Source: a virus
Lineage: Duplodnaviria > Heunggongvirae > Uroviricota > Caudoviricetes
Strand: one strand, 5' to 3'
Length of the DNA stretch: 41,474 nucleotides
Virus record (IMG/VR): IMGVR_UViG_2563366877_000003
Coordinates: 1 to 41,474 of that record
The notes beneath the pieces were generated by a model. That model was not told the origin of the DNA. It did no database searches and saw only the letters and a program-made list of their open reading frames with translations. The translations under genes were made by a program, and so were the position numbers. Shown piece by piece: positions 1 to 14,139 of the stretch (position 1 is its first letter; the number at the start of each line of letters is the position of its first letter).

Positions 1-1173
1 TCAGGCCTTATGGTGGAAATAATCACTCAGGCGAGAAAACATGCCGCCTTCCCCGACAGATTCCAGGGTAACCAGCGGCCAGTGCGCCACCTGTTTATCA
101 CGGTCGTAAAGTTCAATTTCCCCTACCCGCTGATAGGCGCTAATTGGCGCGGTGAGTTCTTTACCATCAAGGGTATATTTGGCTTTGATATGTGGAATTT
201 CGGCTTTCGGTAGCACCATCCAGAACTCTTGTTCCGTTCCCAGGTCGATATTTTCTTTATCGCCATACCAGATGCGTTCCGTTCCGACCTTTTTCCCACG
301 GTGCAAAATTTGCACCGTAGTAAAGTTTTGTTGCCCCCAACGCAGTAATTTTCTTGCCTCTTCCTCACGACCTTTTGCACTGTCAGCCCCCATTACCACT
401 GCAATGAGACGACGCTGCCCATCTACAGCCGAAGCAATGAGATTAAACCCGGCACCAGAAGTATGACCCGTTTTCAGGCCGTCAACATTCATGGTTTTAT
501 CCCACAACAACCCGTTACGGTTTTGCTGGGTGATACCGTTCCAGGTGAGACTTTTCTCACTGTACATATGATAAAACTCGGGCTCGCCGTGGATGATAGC
601 GCGAGAAAGCACAGCTAAATCATAAGCCGAGCTATGCTGGCCAGGTGCATCCAGACCATGCACTGTTTCAAAATGCGTATCCTTGAGATGCAACTTCTCG
701 GCATAGTTGTTCATCATTTCAACAAACTGCCGTTGCCCACCGGCAATATAGTCAGCCAGTGCAACACAAGCGTCATTTCCGGAATCAACAATTAAACCAC
801 GGCTTAAATCACGTACCGATACGCGATCGCCCTCTTTCAAAAACATCAGTGAAGAACCGACAAACACCGGATTATCTTTCGCCCACGCATCGCGCCCCAC
901 GGTGACAATATCGTCTGGCGTAATGCGATGACTATCGATAGCGCGATCCACGACATAACCCGTCATCAGCTTTGTCAGGCTGGCGGGATTGCGCTGTTGA
1001 TGCTCATTACCCGCGGTGAGGATCTGTCCGGTGGTGTAATCCATCAGTACCCAGGACCCGGCATGAATCTCTGGAGGCTGAGGTGAAAAATGAATGTTTT
1101 CCGCCGCAAAACCAGACGATAAGTTAAAAACGAACAAAGAAGCAGCAATAATAAGACGGCGTTTCAACAGCAA
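1..1173 (-). CDS. dacD: D-alanyl-D-alanine carboxypeptidase, penicillin-binding protein 6b
   Basis: Full 390-aa ORF with signal-peptide-like N-terminus and the low-MW PBP motifs SxxK (SLTK), SxN (SGND) and KTG (KTGHT). Sequence recalled as E. coli DacD. Confidence 0.9.
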   Translation of the reverse strand: MLLKRRLIIAASLFVFNLSSGFAAENIHFSPQPPEIHAGSWVLMDYTTGQILTAGNEHQQRNPASLTKLMTGYVVDRAIDSHRITPDDIVTVGRDAWAKDNPVFVGSSLMFLKEGDRVSVRDLSRGLIVDSGNDACVALADYIAGGQRQFVEMMNNYAEKLHLKDTHFETVHGLDAPGQHSSAYDLAVLSRAIIHGEPEFYHMYSEKSLTWNGITQQNRNGLLWDKTMNVDGLKTGHTSGAGFNLIASAVDGQRRLIAVVMGADSAKGREEEARKLLRWGQQNFTTVQILHRGKKVGTERIWYGDKENIDLGTEQEFWMVLPKAEIPHIKAKYTLDGKELTAPISAYQRVGEIELYDRDKQVAHWPLVTLESVGEGGMFSRLSDYFHHKA

Positions 1174-1962: not shown

Positions 1963-2325
1963 ATGTTAAAGCTATTTGCAAAGTACACCTCTATTGGTGT
2001 GCTGAACACACTTATACACTGGGTGGTTTTTGGTGTATGTATCTATGCCGCGCATACCAATCAGGCTCTGGCAAATTTCGCAGGTTTCGTTGTGGCTGTG
2101 AGTTTTAGCTTCTTCGCGAATGCAAAATTCACATTCAAGGCATCGACTACAACGATGCGTTACTTGTTATACGTGGGATTCATGGGAACATTGAGTGTTG
2201 TCGTCGGGTGGGCTGCTGATAGATGCGCACTTCCCCCGATGGTCACCCTTATCACTTTCTCCGCCATCAGCCTGGTGTGCGGTTTCGTCTATTCAAAGTT
2301 CATTGTCTTTAGGGATGCGAAATGA
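1963..2325 (+). CDS. gtrA: GtrA, bactoprenol-linked glucose translocase (flippase)
   Basis: 120-aa hydrophobic four-helix protein directly upstream of and overlapping gtrB; typical serotype-conversion operon order. Confidence 0.85.
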
Positions 2326-3254
2326 AGATATCTCTTGTCGTTCCTGTCTTCAATGAAGAGGAAGCGATACCAATTTTTTATAAAACGGTACGTGAATTCG
2401 AAGAGTTGAAGTCATATGAAGTGGAAATTGTTTTCATAAATGACGGAAGCAAAGACGCTACGGAGTCAATCATTAACGCTCTGGCTGTTTCTGATCCGCT
2501 AGTTGTTCCGCTGTCATTTACACGCAACTTTGGTAAAGAACCAGCATTATTTGCAGGGTTAGACCATGCAAACGGGGATGCGATAATCCCAATTGATGTT
2601 GACCTGCAAGACCCGATTGAGGTTATTCCTCATCTTATTGAAAAGTGGAAGGCAGGTGCTGATATGGTACTGGCTAAGCGCTATGACCGTTCTACAGATG
2701 GAAGACTGAAGCGCAAGACTGCAGAATGGTTCTATAAGCTCCACAATAAAATAAGCAACCCAAAGATTGAAGAGAATGTTGGTGATTTCCGGTTAATGAG
2801 CCGTGAGGTTGTCGAAAATATCAAGCTTATGCCAGAGCGCAACCTTTTTATGAAAGGGGTACTGAGTTGGGTAGGAGGCTCGACAGACATCGTCGAATAT
2901 TCCCGCGCAGAACGTGTTGCTGGTAATTCAAAATTCAATGGATGGAAATTGTGGAATCTTGCGCTCGAAGGGATTACAAGCTTCTCAACATTTCCCCTGC
3001 GCATATGGACTTATATCGGGTTAGTGGTAGCTGGCCTAGCATTTCTGTATGGCGCATGGATGATATTTGACACTCTCGCATTTGGAAATGCTGTACGAGG
3101 ATACCCTTCACTGCTGGTGTCCATTCTGTTTCTTGGAGGGATCCAACTAATCGGCATCGGTGTACTTGGAGAGTACATCGGGAGGATTTACATAGAAACC
3201 AAGGCAAGACCTAAATACATCTTAAAGGAGAAAATAAATGACAAGAAGATTTAA
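2322..3254 (+). CDS. gtrB: GtrB, bactoprenol glucosyltransferase (GT2 family)
   Basis: 310 aa, GT2-like N-terminal domain plus two C-terminal TM helices; start overlaps gtrA stop. Confidence 0.9.
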
Positions 3255-5028
3255 ATTACTACTTTTTATCTCGTTTATTATTCTAGTGGCTATGAATTGC
3301 TACATTGGATATGGTTACACCCCGAGTTCTGATCAGGCTTCTGGTGTAATCATTTCACACGACATAGCAAATGGAAACATTCTACTTTCAGGATGGTTTC
3401 TTTCAACCGTAACTTTCTATTTTACAGACCTTATTTGGTATGCATTGCTGGATATAATAGGTATCAGTAATAAAGTTCAATCATATTTAGTTCCGTCAAT
3501 CCTTATTTCTGCTCTGACAATATGCTGCATAATACTTTCATATCACAAAAAGAAGTTGCCATGGGCAATATTCTTCTCATTTGGAATTCTAGGAGCTTAT
3601 TCATCAAATATATTTAACCTTGCCGTATCACATATTGGGGCTTATTTATATACAGCAATTATTTATATTATAATAGAAAGAACAACTGTATACAAAGCTA
3701 ACATACATCATTATCTCATTGTTTTTCTCTTAAGCCTAGCCATATTTTTTAGCGACGACATAAGCAAATACGCATTTTTGATACCTTTAATTTCATCATT
3801 GGCAATTGAATTATTTTACAAACGAAATAAAGTTCACCTGCACTATGCGGCATCTATATTTCTTGCCTTTATTTTATCGAAAACACTCTTATACTACGTG
3901 CAAGAAATTGGCGGATTTCAATTGCCAGGAATAGGTTATCCTAAGTTTGCCACACAAGAAGAATTTATTAATAACTTATATTTCTTATGTGTTGGTTTAT
4001 TACGTCTTTTCGAAGCATATTTTTTTGGAATGGATATTGGGCTACAGTCTTTTTCATCAATAATTAGACTGTGCTTTCTATTGTTCTTTGTTTACATCAT
4101 TGCTTCTAATGCAAGAAAAATAACAAGATTCTCAACCATTGATAGAGCTTTGCTTCTTACGGCGATTATAATGCCGTGCGCATTCTTATTTAGTAATATT
4201 CCATCAGCGGTTGAATCAATAAGATATATTGCTCCATCTGTAATTTTCGGGGCTGTATTCATCTGTAGAAATGTAAATATAAGCCAAAAAACATCTTTAT
4301 TCCTGCTTTCCTTGTCTTTTGTTAGCGGTGCCATAATTTATGGTAACGCCATTTCATTAGATAAAAAAAACCATGAAATTAATGATATTTCAAAATATAT
4401 AAAGGAGCATAATCTTAAAGCAGGTTTTGCTTCATTCTGGTTTGCGTCGTCAGTTTCATTAAATAGTGGTTCAGAGATATCGCCAGTAGTATTTAATAGC
4501 CATGAAGGAAGTGTAAAACCATTTTTATGGTTAGCTAAAATAAATAATTATGAGCAAAACAATTCATTTATTATAGCTGATAGTAAAGAAGACATGGACG
4601 CTGCAATAATGCAATATGGAAGACCTGATGTAATTGATAAAGTCATGTCAAAGTTTATCTTAGTATGGAATGACGGGATAAATATACCATTTACCGGTTT
4701 TCACACGTTAACCAATTCAAAATACTTTGGTTCTCTAGGTTATAGTGATGAATTTCAAGTATGCAAAAAAGACGGTGCTACATTCTTGGTAACAGGACCA
4801 TACAAACCTCTCAAGAAAGGTATGTATAAAATGCATATTGAAAAAAGTGGTAGAGGTGATGTATTAGGTGATATTGTAGCGTTTGGTGGTAAAAAATTAA
4901 TTGCTAAAATCAATAATGTAGTTGACATGGATTTCTACATTGATAAAACCTATCCTGATGTCGAGGTGAGAATATATAACTCAGACACAAGTTCATGTAT
5001 TAGCTCAATTTCAATAGAGATGAAATAA
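3238..5028 (+). CDS. GtrC-type serotype-specific O-antigen glucosyltransferase, polytopic membrane protein
   Basis: 596-aa ORF overlapping gtrB end, many hydrophobic segments, strongly AT-rich compared with flanks; third position of a gtr operon. Confidence 0.6.
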
Positions 5029-5037
5029 TTATATTTA

Positions 5038-5067
5038 CTGGCAGCAGCATGCTGCCAGTTCTTTATC
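5038..5067. terminator. Hairpin terminator between convergent gtr operon and tailspike gene
   Basis: Perfect 8-bp stem ctggcagc/gctgccag with 5-nt loop, followed by T-rich run on the plus strand and A/T-rich on the other. Confidence 0.5.
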
Positions 5068-5170: not shown

Positions 5171-6961
5171 TCAGTTATCATTAAGGCCTACATTTGCCAT
5201 GGCTGTATAAACTGTCCTTCCAGACCCTGTCTGCCCTACCACTCCGGGTACACCTACGAAAGTGTTGCCAGTTATTACCCATGCAAGGTTATCGTTGGTG
5301 TTAAAGTTTATCCCTCCAGTGCATGTATTCCATCCGCCAGTGACTTTCTGGTTACCGAAGAAATTACCATTCACAGTAACATTACGACAATATTCTGCTT
5401 TTATTGCATAACCGTTGCAACTACTGAATTGGTTATTACCCATTAATAGATTCTGCACGTCATAGAGGTACATGCATTCCTGACCGGCGAAATGGATAAC
5501 ATTGGCGTTAAAGCTAAGTCCCAAAACCTCTGTTGCACGTATTGCTGGAGTCCCTGACACTCTGCCTCCAGAAAACAGGCTGTTTGTGATAGTTCCTACC
5601 GCCACTCTGTTAAGGTCCAAGCAATAACCGTCAATATTGTCAATTACGCTATTAGTTATAAATACCGGTAATCCCCGAGAATCCGCCCCTGAATCTAAAG
5701 GTCGGTGTGTCGTTGACTTTATGCCGTAAGGTCCGTAAAACATCGAAGTGCCTACTAGTCTCAAATCGGCAACATCAGTTATATCTATAGGGGATCTGAC
5801 CATATAGCAGTCGATAAATGCTGGACCCTCGTTAATAGGAAATGCTGGTGATACACTGGCCTCGTTAATTGTGGTCATACTGTCGATTAATACGCAGCCA
5901 TTCCAAGTAACCCAGTGTAAATCTGATGCGTAAATCGGTGCCTTGTAAAAACCGCACTTATCAAATTTAAATAGACTCGCATGTTGCAGTGATATAGCCG
6001 CATTGCTGGGGGTAGAGCTGGAGTCATTACTAAAATGAATGCGCTCGAACACTGTATTTTCAGCCCAAGAAGATGCACTCCCGGTGTTGGCGAAGAACAC
6101 CGTGGCGTCCGCATTTATATTTTTGTTTCGCCAGAATGTTTTAGCGCCACCGCTGCCGATGAAATGCATAGACGGCTTGATGACGCATGGAGGTGTAAAG
6201 TAGTAGCTTCCGTACTGAAACTCTATCGATCGACCTTCATATAACTGTGCGTTAGCCAGGATAGGAGAATGATCTAAACTCTGATCTTCAGATTTGCCAC
6301 CGAACCATTCAATTATAACATGACTACCTGCGCCACTTCGTACCCAATATACAGATGGGGAAGCAGACGAAATAAATACTCCATCATCATCTGTGTAATT
6401 CCCTGATACAGCTACGAAAACACCACCACCTAACAAACCACGTCCTGTGGTGTGCTCCTTCACCATGGCCTTATCACCTACAGATGGTGCTACATCCCGT
6501 AAATTTGATATTTCGGCATATTCACCTATGAGATTCAGCCCATCTTCACTACCCAGGTTATCATAACTAACGGCACCATTAACTAAGTTTACGCCGCCCT
6601 GTGAAGACAAATCCTGTCGTAACTGATCAGGGTCATACTTCAGCACATTAGGAAAATAGAACTGCTGCGCACCGTACGTATCATAAACAGCCATCGAATG
6701 ACCTTGCACAGTTACGAACTTGGCAATCTGTCCGTTATATACAGGGTAACCAGCAGAGTTAATAATGATTGGTTGCGAAACAGGAATGTGAGAGCCGTCT
6801 TCGTTCTCTACATAAACCTGAATCTGGTTTTCAGGATTTACAGGGTCAGTGTCAATTTTACCGATATAAATCTTTCCATTAGCTACGGCTTTAAAAGAAC
6901 GAGCCATAGTGAAGAGTTGCGAAGGCATGCTGACCACAACATTTGCGGTGATATCTGACAT
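5171..6961 (-). CDS. Tailspike protein, P22 gp9-type N-terminal head-binding domain with divergent receptor-binding domain
   Basis: N-terminus [10 protein letters not shown]...[12 protein letters not shown]...DTDPVNP...VTVQGHSMA...NVLKYDPDQ matches P22 tailspike head-binding domain; remainder differs. Start set at internal ATG 6961 rather than the ORF-track start 7009. Confidence 0.85.
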
Positions 6962-7082
6962 TTCATTGCTCCAGACGAATGATATGATGCAACCATGATG
7001 TGATTGCATACCGAAATGGTACTATTGAGTATTTATCCAGTAGGTTACGATGCCATTCCACCCAACTGGTGAGGCATCAAGG

Positions 7083-7343
7083 ATGTACAGCAAATACGAC
7101 GAGGCGCAGTTTCACTTGAGACTTCCGCATGAACTCCACGCGAAAATTAAGCAGCGTGCGAAGATGAATAACAGGTCGCTGAACTCAGAGATAATTGCAG
7201 CGATTGAGGAATCATTGGATAAACAAAGCTCTGCATCAGTTTACATTGACGATGCAGAGCGTATGGCAGAACAACAATCTGATATGGTTAAGAAAATTGT
7301 CTTTGATACGCTCAAGAAGCTATATAAAAAAGACAGCAGATAA
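7083..7343 (+). CDS. mnt: Mnt-like ribbon-helix-helix repressor
   Basis: C-terminal half (RSLNSEI...DAERMAEQQSDMVKKIVFDTLKKLYKK) matches P22 Mnt; start set at internal ATG 7083 with AAGG upstream. Confidence 0.7.
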   Translation: MYSKYDEAQFHLRLPHELHAKIKQRAKMNNRSLNSEIIAAIEESLDKQSSASVYIDDAERMAEQQSDMVKKIVFDTLKKLYKKDSR

Positions 7344-7432: not shown

Positions 7433-9430
7433 CTATTCTGACAACGCATCAGACTTAGCCCCCTGCGTCAGGGCGTTAATTGCCTTTTTTGCCTGCTGCA
7501 AGGCTTTCTCAAACGCTGTTGATCCGCGTTGGGTGTTTGCCATTCGGAGCATTGCATTTCTGAATGGCTCGCTCTCATAGGCGCGAGTAAGAAGTCCGTA
7601 GCTTACCGCTGCGCCAGTTGTCGCCGGGTTCATTGCCGTCCCATACCCGATAATGAACGGGATAGTTTGCTGCCCTGTAGGTGTTGTTACTGCCGCTTTT
7701 GCAGCCTGCTGCGTGGATTGCAGGTAGTTTTTTAATCCTTTCAGGTAAGCAGCGTCCTGCCCCTTAAATGTGATGCCAGTCTGGTTTTGCAGGATGTTAA
7801 GCTGCCGAAGGAACTGGTCAGGGGATCCGCCAGATTTCTCCATCGCCTTTCCAATGATGCCATTGCGCATTTGCGCCCTGCCAACACGACCAACTGAGTT
7901 ATACAGCGTCTTAATTTCAGATTTGTTCTTGCTGAATAGCATGTTGTTGACAACTTCCGGCGTCAGGTCGCCTTTCATGAGAACATTCTTCAGCCTGGTA
8001 TTCTTTAGTTTCGCCGCTTCGTCAGCGTAGACGGCATTGGCCTGCTGATATTTACGGAGAGTATCATTGCCAAGATTCTGACCAATGGCACCATTTATAT
8101 CGTCGGTCATCGCCTTGTAAACGCGCTGTATGGCGGCATCAGAACGGTTTGGTAACACTGGTCGCTCACCCTTCACGTCCATTCTGAACTGGCTGCGCAG
8201 ATCGCTTAATTGCTTCAAATCCAGATTTACCGGGCCATCAGGACCAGCATTGCGAACAAGCTCATCACGATATGACTGAAGTTTTGAAATCGTCTCGTTA
8301 TCAGCAACCTTACCAAGCTTCTGCAGGTTAGATATCTCAGTATCAATCTGCTGAATTGCGCGTGCAGGCTGAATGTTTACTCCTGCCATAGCATTCTGAA
8401 CCTGCTCCAGTCGATTACCGGCGGCACGACGAATTCCTGATGTTTTCGCTTTGAGGCTGTCAATAACAACCGCTGGATCATACTCACCGAATTTATCGGC
8501 AAATCTCTGCACCAACTGGCTTCTCGCTTCCTGTTGCGTTGCTCTCATTCCGCTTGTGCCAGCCAGAGGGATATTTTCCGCTGTCGTCTGCGCCATTTTC
8601 CCGACGCGGGAAGTCGGTTGTAACAGGTCTGTGGTGTGCAGAGGCACGCCTTCACGCTCTGCAAACCTGATAGCCTGTTGCGCTTCGGGTGCGATAGCAC
8701 CACGAACGCCACGATAAGCAGCACCTAATCCACGTCCGGCAGCGTTAATAGCACCGCCAGTAAGTACACCAACGCCTAAATCGGTGGCGAGTGCTTCCGC
8801 ATCATCTTTCGCACTATTTGCAGCAAGTGACCCGACTGCGTTTTCAGCGAGAAGGCGAGTTGCACCCTGAGCGATTCTACCAGCGAGTGTTGGTGCCTGT
8901 GTTGCCGCTCTCTCAATGCCAGCAGGAGTGAGGTAAGGCAATGCCTCAGCAAATACCCTGCCCTCTGTAGTTTGTGGAGTCAGCGCGCCTTGCTGAAGGC
9001 CAAAGTCCCGCTCTAATCCCTGCGTTGTTACTCGTGGCGCTGGTTGATATGTCCCATCGCCAATGCCGAGTTTACCGCCAGCCCAAGCCGCCGCGCTTGT
9101 TACAGCATCGGCAACTGATGCAGGTATGTTTGCCACGTTCACGCCAGCCTGCACCAGTCCGCGACCAGTCTCTTTTACTGCTTCACCAAGATCAGACATA
9201 AATCCGCTTTGCTGTGGTTGTTGCTGTGCTACTGGTTGCTGTGTCTCCACTGGCTGCACAGATGGCAATGGATAGGCTGCATAGAAAGCTTGCTTAGCCT
9301 GCTCTGCATTTTCTCCGGCTTGCGGGGCCACGACTTCATTGAAGTATTGCTCCTGAGCCTGCGCTTTTTGTTCTGGTGCTAACGCCTGATACTGTGGAGA
9401 GGCGATAACATCTTTCCATGCTTTAGCCAT
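7433..9430 (-). CDS. Ejection (injection) protein, P22 gp16-like
   Basis: 665 aa, last gene of the 7-20-16 ejection-protein order downstream of gp20. Confidence 0.75.
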   Translation of the reverse strand: MAKAWKDVIASPQYQALAPEQKAQAQEQYFNEVVAPQAGENAEQAKQAFYAAYPLPSVQPVETQQPVAQQQPQQSGFMSDLGEAVKETGRGLVQAGVNVANIPASVADAVTSAAAWAGGKLGIGDGTYQPAPRVTTQGLERDFGLQQGALTPQTTEGRVFAEALPYLTPAGIERAATQAPTLAGRIAQGATRLLAENAVGSLAANSAKDDAEALATDLGVGVLTGGAINAAGRGLGAAYRGVRGAIAPEAQQAIRFAEREGVPLHTTDLLQPTSRVGKMAQTTAENIPLAGTSGMRATQQEARSQLVQRFADKFGEYDPAVVIDSLKAKTSGIRRAAGNRLEQVQNAMAGVNIQPARAIQQIDTEISNLQKLGKVADNETISKLQSYRDELVRNAGPDGPVNLDLKQLSDLRSQFRMDVKGERPVLPNRSDAAIQRVYKAMTDDINGAIGQNLGNDTLRKYQQANAVYADEAAKLKNTRLKNVLMKGDLTPEVVNNMLFSKNKSEIKTLYNSVGRVGRAQMRNGIIGKAMEKSGGSPDQFLRQLNILQNQTGITFKGQDAAYLKGLKNYLQSTQQAAKAAVTTPTGQQTIPFIIGYGTAMNPATTGAAVSYGLLTRAYESEPFRNAMLRMANTQRGSTAFEKALQQAKKAINALTQGAKSDALSE

Positions 9431-10818
9431 TAATCACCCCATAGTGAAGAAAAGTTACTGCTGGCTGCTGGCTGTGATACCTGTGCAGGTTGAGATTGCT
9501 GCCGCTGAGATTTACCAACATTAACGTTATATTGTTGGTTGTAATTGTTGGTGTATTCCTGAATCTCACGAATCGACTGCTGCATAGCCTCCGGGCTTGA
9601 ATAGTCAACCTGCGGCATCCCCTGAAAATACATCTTCGCTTCTGCAACGGTGTTAATACCACTGGCACCCATGTCCCTTGCTGCCGCCACACCCTGATTC
9701 TGCATTCTGCCCTGAATACGTTGTGCTGAGTTATATAACTGGCGCTGCTCTTTTCCTGTTAATCGGCTGCGAACATCAGCACCAATTGCTGGATTACCCG
9801 CACCGCCTGTCATTCCTGTCATGAAATCGAGAGCAGAAGCGTCTGCATTTGCGATCGCGTCGATATCCTTCTTCATGGCATAGTTTTGTGCTGATGCAGA
9901 CGATGTTGCAGGCGCTGCGATTGAACTGGCAGGAACGCGAACCATATTCCCCTCGTTGTCGATGCCTTCGTAGAACGCATTAGCCCCAGCGCCGTGAAGC
10001 TTCCCGCCTACCGTTACAGTTCTGCCATCTGATAACTGAACTGTACGCTCATCATTCCCAGCGGTTCCTCTTGTTGACGCTCGCTGCATTGCCAAATCCT
10101 GCCCGCGTCGCGCAGTAGAAGCAGATAAGTCCTGCCCGCGCATCGTGATGTTCTGGCCTCGTGCTGTTAGCGCCTCGCCAGCCTGATTGCTGCGGATTGT
10201 CTCTGCAAGTTTTCCGCGATCAATCTCACGACCAGCCATCTTGTCCTGAACATTGAAGTAATCAATCGGACCAAGAGCAGCCATTCCAAGGTGATCAACA
10301 AACTCACCAAATCCTGAAGGGTTCTGCTGATACATCTGAGCAACGTTATTAGGGTCAACACCGACGCGAGTCAGTTCCTTGGCGTTGTTTTGCAGCCATG
10401 ATTGCATTGCTTCTGGAGACGATGACGCAAGGCGTGCGCCAGCCGCTAAGGTGCCGATAGAATTACGCTGATCTTCATCAATGAATCCCATGCCTTTACG
10501 AACGGATTCAATCTGGTCTGGATATTGAATAGCCAACTGACGCAAAGCTCCGCGATCACCAGACGCATAAGCATTAGCGTACGCCTGCTGAAATTCTTTC
10601 TGCCGCTGAGCCTGCTTTTTCTGCTGAAACACCCCTGCAATACCTGAAAGACCTTGCAAAGCAGTCAGCCCAACATTGTTAGCGCCTGAACGCTCAATAT
10701 CATTGTTCTGCCTGATAAGCTGAAGCGTATTGCCGATGTCATTTACGCTCGGAGCGTTTGAGTTGACGCCGCCGATACCAGCTAACAATCCGCCATTTGA
10801 TCCTTGCCAAGTAGCCAT
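9430..10818 (-). CDS. Ejection protein, P22 gp20-like
   Basis: 462 aa, N-terminus [17 protein letters not shown], between gp7 and gp16 homologs. Confidence 0.8.
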
Positions 10819-10827
10819 GATTACCCC

Positions 10828-11520
10828 TTAAAACAACGAGCCAAGCAATCCGATACCAGCACCAATGCCAGCGCCCCAAGGTGTTGATGTTCCCAAAAGG
10901 CTGGCAAGACCTGCACCGGCAATCGCACCAGACGTTCCGCCACTAATTGCTGTCTGAAGACTTGATGGTTTGTTGGCATTAGCAGCGGCAAGAGCTGCAC
11001 TTTGCTGTGCAATGCTGCTCATGTTGTTGGCGTATGTCTGCCCAGCATTTGCCTGACCTTGCAGCGCACCAAGCCCAACGTTTGCCAGATTGTTGTAATT
11101 GCTCATCTGGTTTGATAACCACGACTGACCGAGAGTCGGAGCAATCGTAGCCAGTTGATTGCTTGTGGCTGTCGAACCAAGTCCGCCAGTCGCCTCCGCA
11201 GTAGCAAGACTCTGGTAACGAGCCTGACCTGCAAGGTCTTTATACTGCTGAGAGTTGTAATACTGATTAAGTGCCTGCCCCTGACCTTCTAAACTGGAAA
11301 GGTTCTGAAGCTGGTTAACATACTGCTCCGCAAGAGGCGTGAACGGAGCAAGGTTTTTCATGATCGTCTGCCACTGCTGATTTTGCAGGTCTGCGGCATA
11401 CTTCTGAGCTTCTGCTGCATACTTTGCGCTTTTATCAGAGCTGCCACCTTTCCCGCCTTTTTCAGGGCAATAAGGTTCCTCGCCACGCAGTTTTCTGCCT
11501 AGCTTAAATGCATATAACAT
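10828..11520 (-). CDS. Ejection protein, P22 gp7-like
   Basis: 230 aa, MLYAF.LGRKLRGEEPY...GIGAGIGLLGSLF matches recalled P22 gp7. Confidence 0.8.
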   Translation of the reverse strand: MLYAFKLGRKLRGEEPYCPEKGGKGGSSDKSAKYAAEAQKYAADLQNQQWQTIMKNLAPFTPLAEQYVNQLQNLSSLEGQGQALNQYYNSQQYKDLAGQARYQSLATAEATGGLGSTATSNQLATIAPTLGQSWLSNQMSNYNNLANVGLGALQGQANAGQTYANNMSSIAQQSAALAAANANKPSSLQTAISGGTSGAIAGAGLASLLGTSTPWGAGIGAGIGLLGSLF

Positions 11521-11698
11521 GGCTATCTCCTGTGATTCAGGAAGTCGATTAGTTCTTCGCGTGTGGCGCTGTAAAACGTCACGTCATCCACGCCTTTGAA
11601 GTATTTCTTGATGGTTCCTACACGCTTAAGGCCAATCATTGCGCAGTACATCTGCCTGAACCGCCCCGGGTTTCCTGGAGAGTGTTTTATCTGTGAAC

Positions 11699-12589
11699 TC
11701 AGGCTGCCAGATCATCGTTTCCGATGGAAGCATAATAAGCTTTTTCTGCTTCTGCCGGAGGAGTATGGCCCAGCCTTTCCAGCAATCGTCGATTGTTATA
11801 CCAGTCCACCCACGTGAGTGTGGCCAGTTCCACTTCTGCACGGTTTTTCCAGCTCTTACGGTGTATTACCTCCGCTTTGTAAAGACCATTGATGCTCTCC
11901 GCCATCGCGTTGTCATACGAGTCGCCTGTACTTCCTGTTGATGCCAGTAATCCGGCTTCCTTAAGCCGCTGTGTGTAGGCCAGCGATACATACTGAGAAC
12001 CTTTATCACTGTGATGGACCGTGCCGGACGGTCGACGGGCCCATAACGCCTGCTCCAGTGCATCCAGCACGAATGTCGTTTCCATGGACGATGAGACCCG
12101 CCACCCCACGATGTATCCGGCAAACACATCAATGATGAACGCCACATAGACGAAGCCCCGCCATGTGCTGACGTAAGTAAAATCAGCCACCCACAGCTGG
12201 TCAGGTCGTTCTGCCACGAACTGACGGTTTACGCGGTCGCCTGCGGCAACGGCTTTCCGGCTGATGGTCGTACGGACCTTTTTACCCCGGAGAACACCGG
12301 CAAGTCCCATAACCGCCATGAGACGTGCCACAGTGCATCTGGCCACTCTGATACCTTCCCGTAACAACTGACGCCAGACTTTACGCACACCGTATACCTT
12401 GTGATTTTCATCGTATACGCGCTGTATCTCTTTCTTCAGCCAGTCATCGCGCTGCGCACGGGCACTGCGTTTATCCGGATGATGTCGCTGTTGCTGACAG
12501 TGGTAATACGTTGACGGGGCAATATGCAGTTCGCTGCATAGCGGTCCGACCCCGTACTGCTCACGCAGCTTATCCAGCAGTGGCATCAT
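11699..12589 (-). CDS. IS3-family transposase OrfB (DDE catalytic domain)
   Basis: 296-aa ORF overlapping orfA in the -1 frame; DDE-type integrase core. Confidence 0.9.
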
Positions 12590-12912
12590 TTTTTCCAGAG
12601 GCGGTCGAACTCCGCCTTCGCAAAATAAGCGGAAGCCTGGCGAAGGATATCGTTACTGCGGCGCAGTTCACGATTTTCACGTTCCAGCTCTTTCAGACGC
12701 TGACGTTCAGCGGTGGTGAGCCCTCCATCACCGCCCCCGGTATCCCGCTCATGCTGGCGAACCCAGACACGCAGAGTCTCCGGCGTACAGCCAATCTTTG
12801 GAGCAATGGAACAAATTGTCGCCCATTGTGAGTCATATTCGCTCTGACTTTCCAGAACCATACGGACTGCCCGTTGACGGACTTCGGGGGAAAAACGAGT
12901 ATTTTTAGTCAT
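12586..12912 (-). CDS. IS3-family transposase OrfA (HTH DNA-binding)
   Basis: 108-aa [22 protein letters not shown]..., ends in A-rich slippery run GGAAAAAATGA overlapping the orfB start. Confidence 0.9.
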
Positions 12913-13290
12913 CCTGTTTACCTCTTTCTCAGGAAGTTTAGTCTCCAGGATTCCCGGGGCGGTTCAGCCCGTGGCGGAATTTGCGTGCAGCGAACGATGT
13001 GACGCACTGAACGGTGGTGTTAGTCAGAATGTATCGCCAGAACGCCAGCCCGATTTCCTTGCTGAATCCGCGAATCTCTGGCAGGTACATGGCGTGGCAA
13101 TCGAATGTAAGCGGCTGAATCTCCTGATAGTAAACAATGCCGCCGAACTGCCCGTGCACGTTCACCTCAAAGTAACGGCAATCAGGTTTGTAGTCGTATC
13201 CATCACCGTTGTTGCTCCCGGCAATAATGTCAGGGTGATTTCCGACTGCTTCGATCAGGTCGATGTTTCGCGTTGGTTTGAACTGAATCA

Positions 13291-14139
13291 TTACTGCTCC
13301 GCGATTATCTTGATGGTTGTGGCAGTAAACGCCGCACCATTTGACTGGATGGTTAACGTACTGCCATTTGCGGCAAGAAAGCCGTCTTTATCCACGCTGA
13401 AAAACGTAGCTAACAGGATGTTATCGGTCGTTGTCGCCGAGTTGCGACTGCTTACCAGTGTGTCAGGAACAGAGCCGGAAAAGGTTAGCTGCATTGACCT
13501 GTTGGCGGTTCCGCTGGGCCACGTCCCGACGATCGACAGCTTGAAGAACAAGGTTTTGTTCTCGTTGAACACAACCATCTTGTTGTTAACAGTGTCGAAG
13601 AATGGTGCCAACGTCCCGGATGACGGCGTGAGCGTTTTCAGCAGGCTAACAAGGTTGGTCGGCGCTGTCGGGATGGTTACTGATACGCCAGAGTAAACAA
13701 CCTCTGACTTCTTGCGAGTAGTGGCATACTCCAGAGCATTGATGCGCGTTTCATGGTCTGAAACCTGCGATTCCAGCGACTGAACTCTGGTATCAAGCGA
13801 CGCAATATCGCTTTCATTCTGAGCTATTCGTGTTTCATGTTCCTGAAGAGTTGATTCTGCCTGGCTGATTCGATCCTCATGATTAACAAGCGTTGCTTCC
13901 GCAGCAGAAATTCGCTGCTCATGGTCAGCGAGAATCACATCCTGCTCATCGTTCCTGACCTGTGCATCATAAGCGCCCTGTCCGGCCTCGTTGGCCTTGT
14001 TAGCCACGTTACCAACATCAGTGCCCTGTGCGATAACGTAAAGCAGATACGACTGCGAGAAGATATTGCGTGGAAGGACTGATGTGTCGAGCCGTGTAGC
14101 CTGAATGATTACCGGCACATTGAGATTAGAATCCGCCAT
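13291..14139 (-). CDS. Tail needle protein, P22 gp26-like with divergent C-terminal domain
   Basis: N-terminus [43 protein letters not shown]...GQGAYDAQV matches P22 gp26; C-terminal region differs, suggesting a knob-type needle. Confidence 0.8.

Follow-up and report, generated by a model that had tools for sequence, protein, structure and literature searches.

The tailspike gene of a P22-like prophage in Escherichia coli raises the question of what lies behind its head-binding domain, since the remainder of the protein does not resemble the P22 tailspike in sequence, and of which surface glycan that remainder recognizes. The window analyzed here is a stretch of 41,474 nucleotides (nt) assigned to the Caudoviricetes (IMG/VR record IMGVR_UViG_2563366877_000003, positions 1 to 41,474), and an alignment of 16,961 nt ties it to E. 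coli KTE232 at 100% identity (contig KB732530.1, assembly GCA_000351165.1). Our reading, which we regard as probable, is that the gene at 5171..6961 encodes a P22-like prophage spike with a hydrolase of the type found in TSP3 of phage CBA120 and that the O176 O-antigen is its most likely substrate. The mosaic is of a textbook type, and the protein is already annotated as a tailspike; the present analysis adds the exact point at which the second module begins, assigns that module, whose catalytic residues are conserved, to the TSP3 lineage, and predicts O176 (for the Salmonella alleles, O18) as the target. The gene and its parts are as follows.

5171..6961, minus strand: tailspike gene, 596 codons plus stop (stop codon at 5171-5173), from the open reading frame (ORF) and its translation
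6969..6972, minus strand: Shine-Dalgarno-like GGAG, 7 nt upstream of the ATG at 6961, read from the sequence
6623..6961, minus strand: P22-type head-binding (tail-adaptor) domain, codons 1-113, from Pfam PF09008 and the Sf6 and P22 matches
6623-6637, minus strand: conserved hinge Y109-D-P-D-Q113, closing the head-binding domain
6323..6622, minus strand: linker ([20 protein letters not shown]) and small beta domain, codons 114-213, first part of the transferable receptor-binding module
5207..6322, minus strand: right-handed parallel beta-helix, predicted glycosidase domain, codons 214-585

The program-made list gives this ORF as 5171..7009 (minus strand, 612 amino acids [aa]). We rejected the longer version starting at 7009 in favor of the ATG at 6961-6959, which the initial annotation had used as well, because a GGAG lies upstream of it and because the product then has the N-terminus common to the P22 and Sf6 tailspikes and to WP_001543868.1 (MSDITANVV..., [17 protein letters not shown]), with which the P22 and Sf6 N-termini are collinear. 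The 596-aa product is an exact match to RefSeq WP_001543868.1 from E. coli KTE232, a member of a 71-member 90% cluster annotated as “phage tailspike protein,” and PHROG 7173 (“tail spike protein”) matches it over its full length (residues 1-596 against profile positions 1-626, expect [E] value of 2.1e-270). Small ORFs within the tailspike gene, on both strands, were treated as spurious.

The N-terminal assignment is firm. Residues 1-113 cover all 113 positions of the Pfam PF09008 Head_binding model (E value of 1.8e-66; 221.9 bits, against a cut-off of 24), and the same region matches the structures of Sf6 gp14 (its residues 1-135, E value of 2e-64) and P22 gp9 (residues 1-116, E value of 8e-50), so that the first ~110 residues are indeed the P22 head-binding domain that the initial annotation saw in them. 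Over residues 1-113, identity amounts to 101/113 (89%) with Sf6 and 83/113 (73%) with P22. The match then stops: full-length P22 tailspike chains (2xc1 and 8tvr) align to residues 1-116 only, and a Pfam scan found no P22 tail domain in the C-terminal part, which places the protein outside the P22 gp9 endorhamnosidase subfamily. At the nucleotide level, megablast returned 26 phage records (HK620, Sf6, Sf101, CUS-3, IME10, and others) that match only the first 339-391 nt of the gene (corresponding to aa 113-130), and roughly 1,130 of 5,426 complete E. coli genomes do likewise; in HK620, Sf6, CUS-3, Sf101, and IME10, DNA identity to the window gene ends at the hinge. The head-binding match and the break at the hinge are, judging from these alignments, far beyond chance. 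Two-module mosaicism, a P22-type head-binding domain joined to a receptor-binding module without sequence similarity to P22 gp9, is therefore the correct description of the gene.

The boundary of the second module can be placed precisely. In an alignment of 23 homologous sequences, proteins with non-P22 N-termini become alignable from L114/R115, directly past the hinge; these alternative N-termini include the Pfam PF18668 Tail_spike_N and T7-tail-fibre types. Identity within the module is 92-97% for proteins that carry other adaptors, 76% for the spike of FSL SP-031, FSL SP-038, and FSL SP-049, which are virulent siphophages of Salmonella, and 70-84% for the P22-type spikes encoded by Salmonella, Enterobacter, and Xenorhabdus prophages. 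In a set of 1.84 billion representative proteins, this tight family fills no more than four clusters at 50% identity, and its nearest relatives beyond those clusters, in the same set, are TSP3-like proteins at 24-28% identity. By these comparisons it appears to be a compact, well-sampled module family that has been shuffled between phage types. A prophage of E. coli GF66.2 carries a spike that is 99-100% identical to that of the window mid-gene and differs in the first ~27 and last ~35 codons (21 aa differences in total); these differences at the gene ends (window positions 6913-6961 and 5171-5199) suggest further small recombination patches at either end.

The C-terminal ~480 residues are no orphan: by sequence comparison they belong to a beta-helix of the TSP3-like lineage. 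BLASTP aligned residues 215-546 with CBA120 TSP3 (orf212) at 27% identity over ~335 residues (E value of 2e-26), phmmer matched residues 209-565 to the TSP3 structures 5w6f and 6nw9 (E value of 1.5e-25), and the Pfam Beta_helix model lies on residues 433-580. Preceding the helix, residues 134-213 match the N-terminal part of CBA120 TSP2dN (5w6p), and residues 7-235 match WceF (6tgf). An AlphaFold2 model, computed as a monomer from 23 homologues, consists of a beta-helix preceded by a small beta domain, with a predicted local distance difference test (pLDDT) score of ~90 at 143-585 and of ~75-90 for the strands at 144-208; the model is poor for the N-terminal domain, since the aligned homologues differ in their N-termini. 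When this model was compared with the Protein Data Bank by Foldseek, TSP3 entries (6nw9/5w6f) formed the top three matches (E values of 3e-17 to 4e-15), with Sf6, P22, TSP2, TSP4, and several capsule depolymerases lower down. The TSP3 alignment ends at residue 546 of 596 here and at residue 531 of 627 in TSP3, after which the model has a few short strands and a low-confidence tail. These results refine the view that the remainder of the protein is unlike the P22 endorhamnosidase: this holds for the sequence but fails for the fold class, which is a right-handed parallel beta-helix in both. The spike is probably homotrimeric; the modelled monomer fold matches those of trimeric spikes.

TSP3 residues Glu362 and Asp426, which lie on adjacent subunits, were both needed for activity upon mutagenesis, whereas Asp383 is near the active site but dispensable, and His334 hydrogen-bonds Glu362 (PMC6517402). 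The counterparts of all four were read by hand from the pairwise BLASTP alignment, and their codons were checked.

5828..5830, minus strand: codon E378, counterpart of TSP3 catalytic Glu362
5639..5641, minus strand: codon D441, counterpart of TSP3 catalytic Asp426
5765..5767, minus strand: codon D399, counterpart of TSP3 Asp383
5915..5917, minus strand: codon H349, counterpart of TSP3 His334

E378, D441, D399, and H349 are invariant in 23 homologues (45-97% identity) of the multiple alignment. Because the TSP3 catalytic residues are aligned and invariant in this way, the protein is predicted to be a hydrolase whose active site lies between subunits, as in TSP3. Neither Pfam nor NCBIfam has a glycoside hydrolase model that matches the spike, and NCBIfam assigns it no family.

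CBA120 TSP3 (ORF212 of a member of the Ackermannviridae, assigned to O77) is thus the best match in both sequence and structure, and it shares the four active-site residues. It is also, at 27% identity, the closest tailspike with an assigned specificity, so that no tailspike of already known specificity was found to have an identical C-terminal domain. The two proteins differ in that ours has the P22 head-binding N-terminus in place of the domains for assembly of the Ackermannviridae tailspike complex (D1/D2) and in the predicted host antigen, which is linked 1->4 rather than 1->6. Compared with the other P22-like tailspikes (P22 gp9, Sf6 gp14, HK620 gp9, and the CUS-3 endosialidase spike), the protein has the same head-binding domain and YDPDQ hinge, but its receptor-binding module is without sequence similarity to theirs, being of the TSP3-like lineage with a predicted inter-subunit site at E378/D441.

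For the receptor, homology to TSP3 and the gtrABC cassette next to the gene first suggested the O77 group (O17/O44/O73/O77/O106); this hypothesis was dropped, as the host loci proved to be of type O176. The full module occurs in only two of the 5,426 complete E. coli genomes, GF66.2 and PSS-11 (98.3% nucleotide identity), and searching with greater sensitivity brings in MB53 alone, with a remnant of 262 nt. In GF66.2, the annotated O-antigen locus comprises O176-family wzy and wzx, two glycosyltransferases, manC, and manB. This O176 cluster is present in 8 of the 5,426 genomes, one of which is labelled O176:H45, and all three genomes with module DNA (GF66.2, PSS-11, and MB53) are among those eight. 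KTE232 has such a cluster too: on contig KB732530.1, the O176 glycosyltransferases and manC lie ~55 kb away from the spike gene, in a stretch 99.5% identical to the O176:H45 strain MIN9, and a 3.58-Mb contig of another assembly (KE702177.1) carries an O176 glycosyltransferase. The prophages themselves are placed and equipped differently, at dacD with gtrABC in KTE232 and at argW with a phage-borne wzy in GF66.2, so that the module entered O176 backgrounds at least twice.

The association extends across genera. Outside E. coli, the closest relatives of the O176 Wzy polymerase are those of Salmonella serovar Cerro (69% identity; 339 sequences) and Citrobacter (69%), followed by Xenorhabdus bovienii (63%), Ewingella sp. 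CoE-038-23 (57%), and Enterobacter (52%). Relatives of the module are found in Cerro prophages, in the Cerro phages FSL SP-031/038/049, and in prophages of Salmonella houtenae 18:z36,z38, and likewise in X. bovienii, Ewingella sp. CoE-038-23, and Enterobacter. Cerro is serogroup K (O:6,14,18), and all three FSL phages were isolated on it (PMC3728262). Their protein (AGF88260.1, “tail fiber protein”; Cornellvirus) and the spikes of the Salmonella O18 prophages are 75-84% identical to the module from residues ~114-136 to the C-terminus and retain all catalytic positions; the phage type and N-terminal adaptor of the FSL phages are different. For the protein of FSL SP-031, at 76% identity, what has been established is the host serovar, Cerro.

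The structures of the antigens concerned are closely related. The O176 unit is ->4)-a-D-Man-(1->2)-a-D-Man-(1->2)-b-D-Man-(1->3)-a-D-GlcNAc-(1-> (where Man is mannose and GlcNAc is N-acetylglucosamine; PMC9912281), and O77 is the same tetrasaccharide joined 1->6 instead of 1->4 (PMC7685785), so that the antigen assigned to TSP3 shares its Man-Man-Man-GlcNAc unit with O176. According to an indirect statement in a Yersinia review, the Cerro O-antigen equals the main chain of Y. pseudotuberculosis O:2c/O:4a, which has b-Man-(1->3)-GalNAc and a-Man-(1->2)-Man linkages (GalNAc is N-acetylgalactosamine; PMC5399914). The O18 hosts of the FSL phages and prophages (Cerro 6,14,18 and houtenae 18:z36,z38) have a Man3-GalNAc analogue of the O176 unit, differing in the first sugar, which is GalNAc there and GlcNAc in O176. 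The most likely substrate would accordingly be the O-antigen of E. coli O176 or, in the case of the Salmonella alleles, its close Man3-GalNAc analogue in O18, because among the complete E. coli genomes the module is confined to those with the O176 cluster and because it co-occurs across genera with O176-type Wzy. No tailspike for O176 or O18 was found in the searchable literature.

The genes surrounding the tailspike are those expected at the end of a P22-like prophage.

1-1173, minus strand: host dacD, at the window start
1963..2325, plus strand: gtrA (flippase-like; Pfam GtrA_DPMS_TM, E value of 9e-14)
2322..3254, plus strand: gtrB (bactoprenol glucosyltransferase, glycosyltransferase family 2; Pfam Glycos_transf_2, E value of 8e-32)
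3238..5028, plus strand: GtrC-like serotype-specific membrane protein, 596 aa, ~32% GC, assigned from its position after gtrA/gtrB; convergent with the tailspike gene
5037..5059, strand not assigned: 10-bp GC-rich perfect hairpin between the convergent GtrC-like and tailspike genes (consensus scan, pattern match only)
7050..7343, plus strand: Mnt/Arc-type repressor of the immI region, upstream of and divergent from the tailspike gene (Pfam Repressor_Mnt and Arc)
7433..11520, minus strand: P22-type ejection genes gp16, gp20, and gp7, directly upstream in the late operon (Pfam Inj_translocase and P22_gp7)

Still further upstream lie gp26, gp10, gp4, and coat genes, and the tailspike gene ends this P22-like late operon, as established by Pfam matches to the neighbors and on the identical locus L002; the latter also yields the Phage_P22_gp16 match, no Pfam family having been assigned to gp16 in the window scan. 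As in other P22-like phages, the tailspike gene closes the late operon behind gp7/gp20/gp16 and an immI remnant, with an O-antigen conversion cassette adjoining at the attachment-site end, and the prophage is P22-like, of the Sf6/HK620 subgroup, inserted beside dacD in KTE232. Between dacD and gtrA, ~790 bp (1174-1962) are without an ORF of at least 100 aa and presumably hold the attachment junction. There is no tRNA gene in the window, and the integration site thus differs from the argW site of the GF66.2 relative, in which an HNH endonuclease gene occupies the position of the window mnt. The hairpin is terminator-like and could serve both convergent genes, while a promoter scan of the window returned fewer sites than the shuffled expectation.

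The GtrC-like protein matches PHROG 22113 over residues 312-596 and has no Pfam or NCBIfam family (NCBIfam likewise lacks a family for GtrA and for the phage-borne Wzy); megablast of its gene against the 5,426 complete E. coli genomes returned nothing, so that it provides no link to known glucosylated serotypes. It is, however, 54% identical end to end to a 596-aa protein of Ewingella sp. CoE-038-23 (L024:4880-6670), which lies with gtrB and gtrA, convergent to a homologous spike (72% identical in the module), in a prophage of non-P22 type. Spike module and GtrC hence seem to travel together. At the position of gtrABC, GF66.2, PSS-11, the MB53 remnant, and a 40.9-kb Logan contig (L022) carry a phage-borne wzy instead, located in three of these as follows.

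L001:9817-11169: phage-borne wzy of GF66.2
L022:7828-9150: phage-borne wzy of the Logan contig
L029:6365-7717: phage-borne wzy of MB53

Between the GF66.2 and Logan copies, identity is 53%; the former, which is 40% identical to the O176 Wzy, was found in only three O176-cluster strains among the complete E. coli genomes. The chromosomal O176 wzy of GF66.2 (L008:9954-11284) is annotated as frameshifted, and its argW prophage supplies another wzy; the phage polymerase may replace the host enzyme and change the linkage of the polymer. We also considered that the phage wzy converts O176 into an O77-like polymer, which is unsupported: its DNA matches only the three O176 genomes and no O77-type wzy. 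In MB53, a remnant at argW bounded by insertion sequence IS1 keeps the last 262 nt of the spike gene (L029:6001-6262), the phage wzy, and intS, and the conversion gene is thus kept where the phage is lost. In seroconverting temperate phages (P22 with gtr and Sf6 with oac are examples), the cassette beside the tailspike normally modifies the spike's own receptor. By analogy, the pairing of the module with gtrABC or a phage wzy supports a receptor that would be the O-antigen modified by these cassettes.

Put together, residues 1-113 would dock the spike to the virion tail hub, and residues 114-596 would act as the transferable receptor-binding module after the YDPDQ hinge, composed of the linker, the small beta domain, and the TSP3-homologous beta-helix. 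A homotrimeric spike would bind the host O-antigen and hydrolyze it with an acid/base pair formed, as in TSP3, by E378 of one subunit and D441 of its neighbor, and by this hydrolysis the virion would advance to the outer membrane. In the lysogen, the adjacent gtrABC would glucosylate the O-antigen and thereby block re-adsorption.

Several observations weigh against this account. Prophage carriage in O176 hosts is correlative, and it could be a modified antigen that serves as the receptor; if GF66.2 and PSS-11 are clonal, as they may be, fewer of the observations are independent; and one Salmonella homologue is named from serovar Chailey, which we take not to be O18. Past the TSP3-alignable region, ~50 residues remain here against ~95 in TSP3, where they form the D4 domain, and the shorter region has no obvious D4 prism. 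The O77 assignment of TSP3 rests on phage host range and chimeras, and the study of its structure saw halos on O157 mutant strains without O-antigen and left the substrate open (PMC6517402). On these grounds, a functional spike could have a receptor other than plain O176, be it a glucosylated or differently polymerized derivative (the module always adjoins gtrABC or a phage wzy, and lysogens may display modified antigen) or the lipopolysaccharide core, enterobacterial common antigen, colanic acid, or a capsule. Core, enterobacterial common antigen, and colanic acid are common to most E. coli, though, and would explain neither the restriction of the module to three of the eight O176-cluster genomes nor its cross-genus co-occurrence with one Wzy family; the habit of conversion cassettes to act on the receptor of the neighboring spike argues in the same direction, and we consider a different receptor rather unlikely. 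Even less credible is a beta-helix that only binds its glycan or uses lyase or esterase chemistry. Lyases, deacetylases, and binders without catalytic activity do occur among spikes of this fold, alginate epimerases and capsule lyases are among the Foldseek matches as well (E values of ~1e-8), and glycoside hydrolase models stay silent, but the two carboxylates on which TSP3, the closest homologue of solved structure, depends are invariant in this family, as is the supporting His, and a neutral mannan/HexNAc substrate (HexNAc, N-acetylhexosamine) offers a lyase no uronic acid.

A separate matter is whether the prophage in this genome is still viable, and here the doubts are somewhat larger. 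A 1,310-bp IS3-family element (11657-12966; ORFs at 11699-12589 and 12586-12912, minus strand) splits the homologue of gene 14 (DUF2824), leaving a 117-aa stub (12938-13291), whereas the same prophage in two other assemblies (L003 and L006) lacks the element and has an intact 151-aa gene; viability of the KTE232 phage is therefore not assured. That such prophages do decay is seen in MB53, with its spike tail beside wzy and integrase. In addition, manB of the KTE232 O-antigen cluster has a premature TGA relative to MIN9 (L010, ~6800) and is called as 53-aa and 383-aa pieces, so that O176 expression is not assured in this strain and may depend on the colanic-acid paralogue cpsG. With both lesions, the lysogen may be partly rough and its prophage defective. 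The spike gene could on this evidence be a relic, intact in sequence and no longer used for infectious virions. Its ORF is, however, uninterrupted and 100% identical in five assemblies, including those of IS-free prophages, and all catalytic and structural positions are conserved; we judge a relic to be improbable, if the least so of these alternatives, and it concerns the state of the prophage, not the identity of the protein. The P22-like spike with a TSP3-type hydrolase directed at O176 remains the reading that we favor.

A broader proposal, which we offer tentatively and hold to be somewhat less likely true than false, is that the module family is a cross-genus depolymerase for Man3-HexNAc O-antigens made with one Wzy family (those of E. 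coli O176, Salmonella O18, and some Citrobacter, Xenorhabdus, and Ewingella) that would tell O176 from O77 by the polymerization linkage only and would pass as a unit from one phage type to another, together with its cognate modifying gene, either the 596-aa GtrC or a phage wzy, the latter perhaps standing in for the frameshifted chromosomal wzy of GF66.2. In P22-like phages, O-serotype host range is set mainly by the modular tailspike, and a rule that leads from module family to O-antigen by sequence would aid phage host prediction, serotype-specific detection reagents, and the discovery of depolymerases. O176 and O77 would, furthermore, allow a natural comparison of two related enzymes, with substrates distinguished solely by the linkage that Wzy makes.

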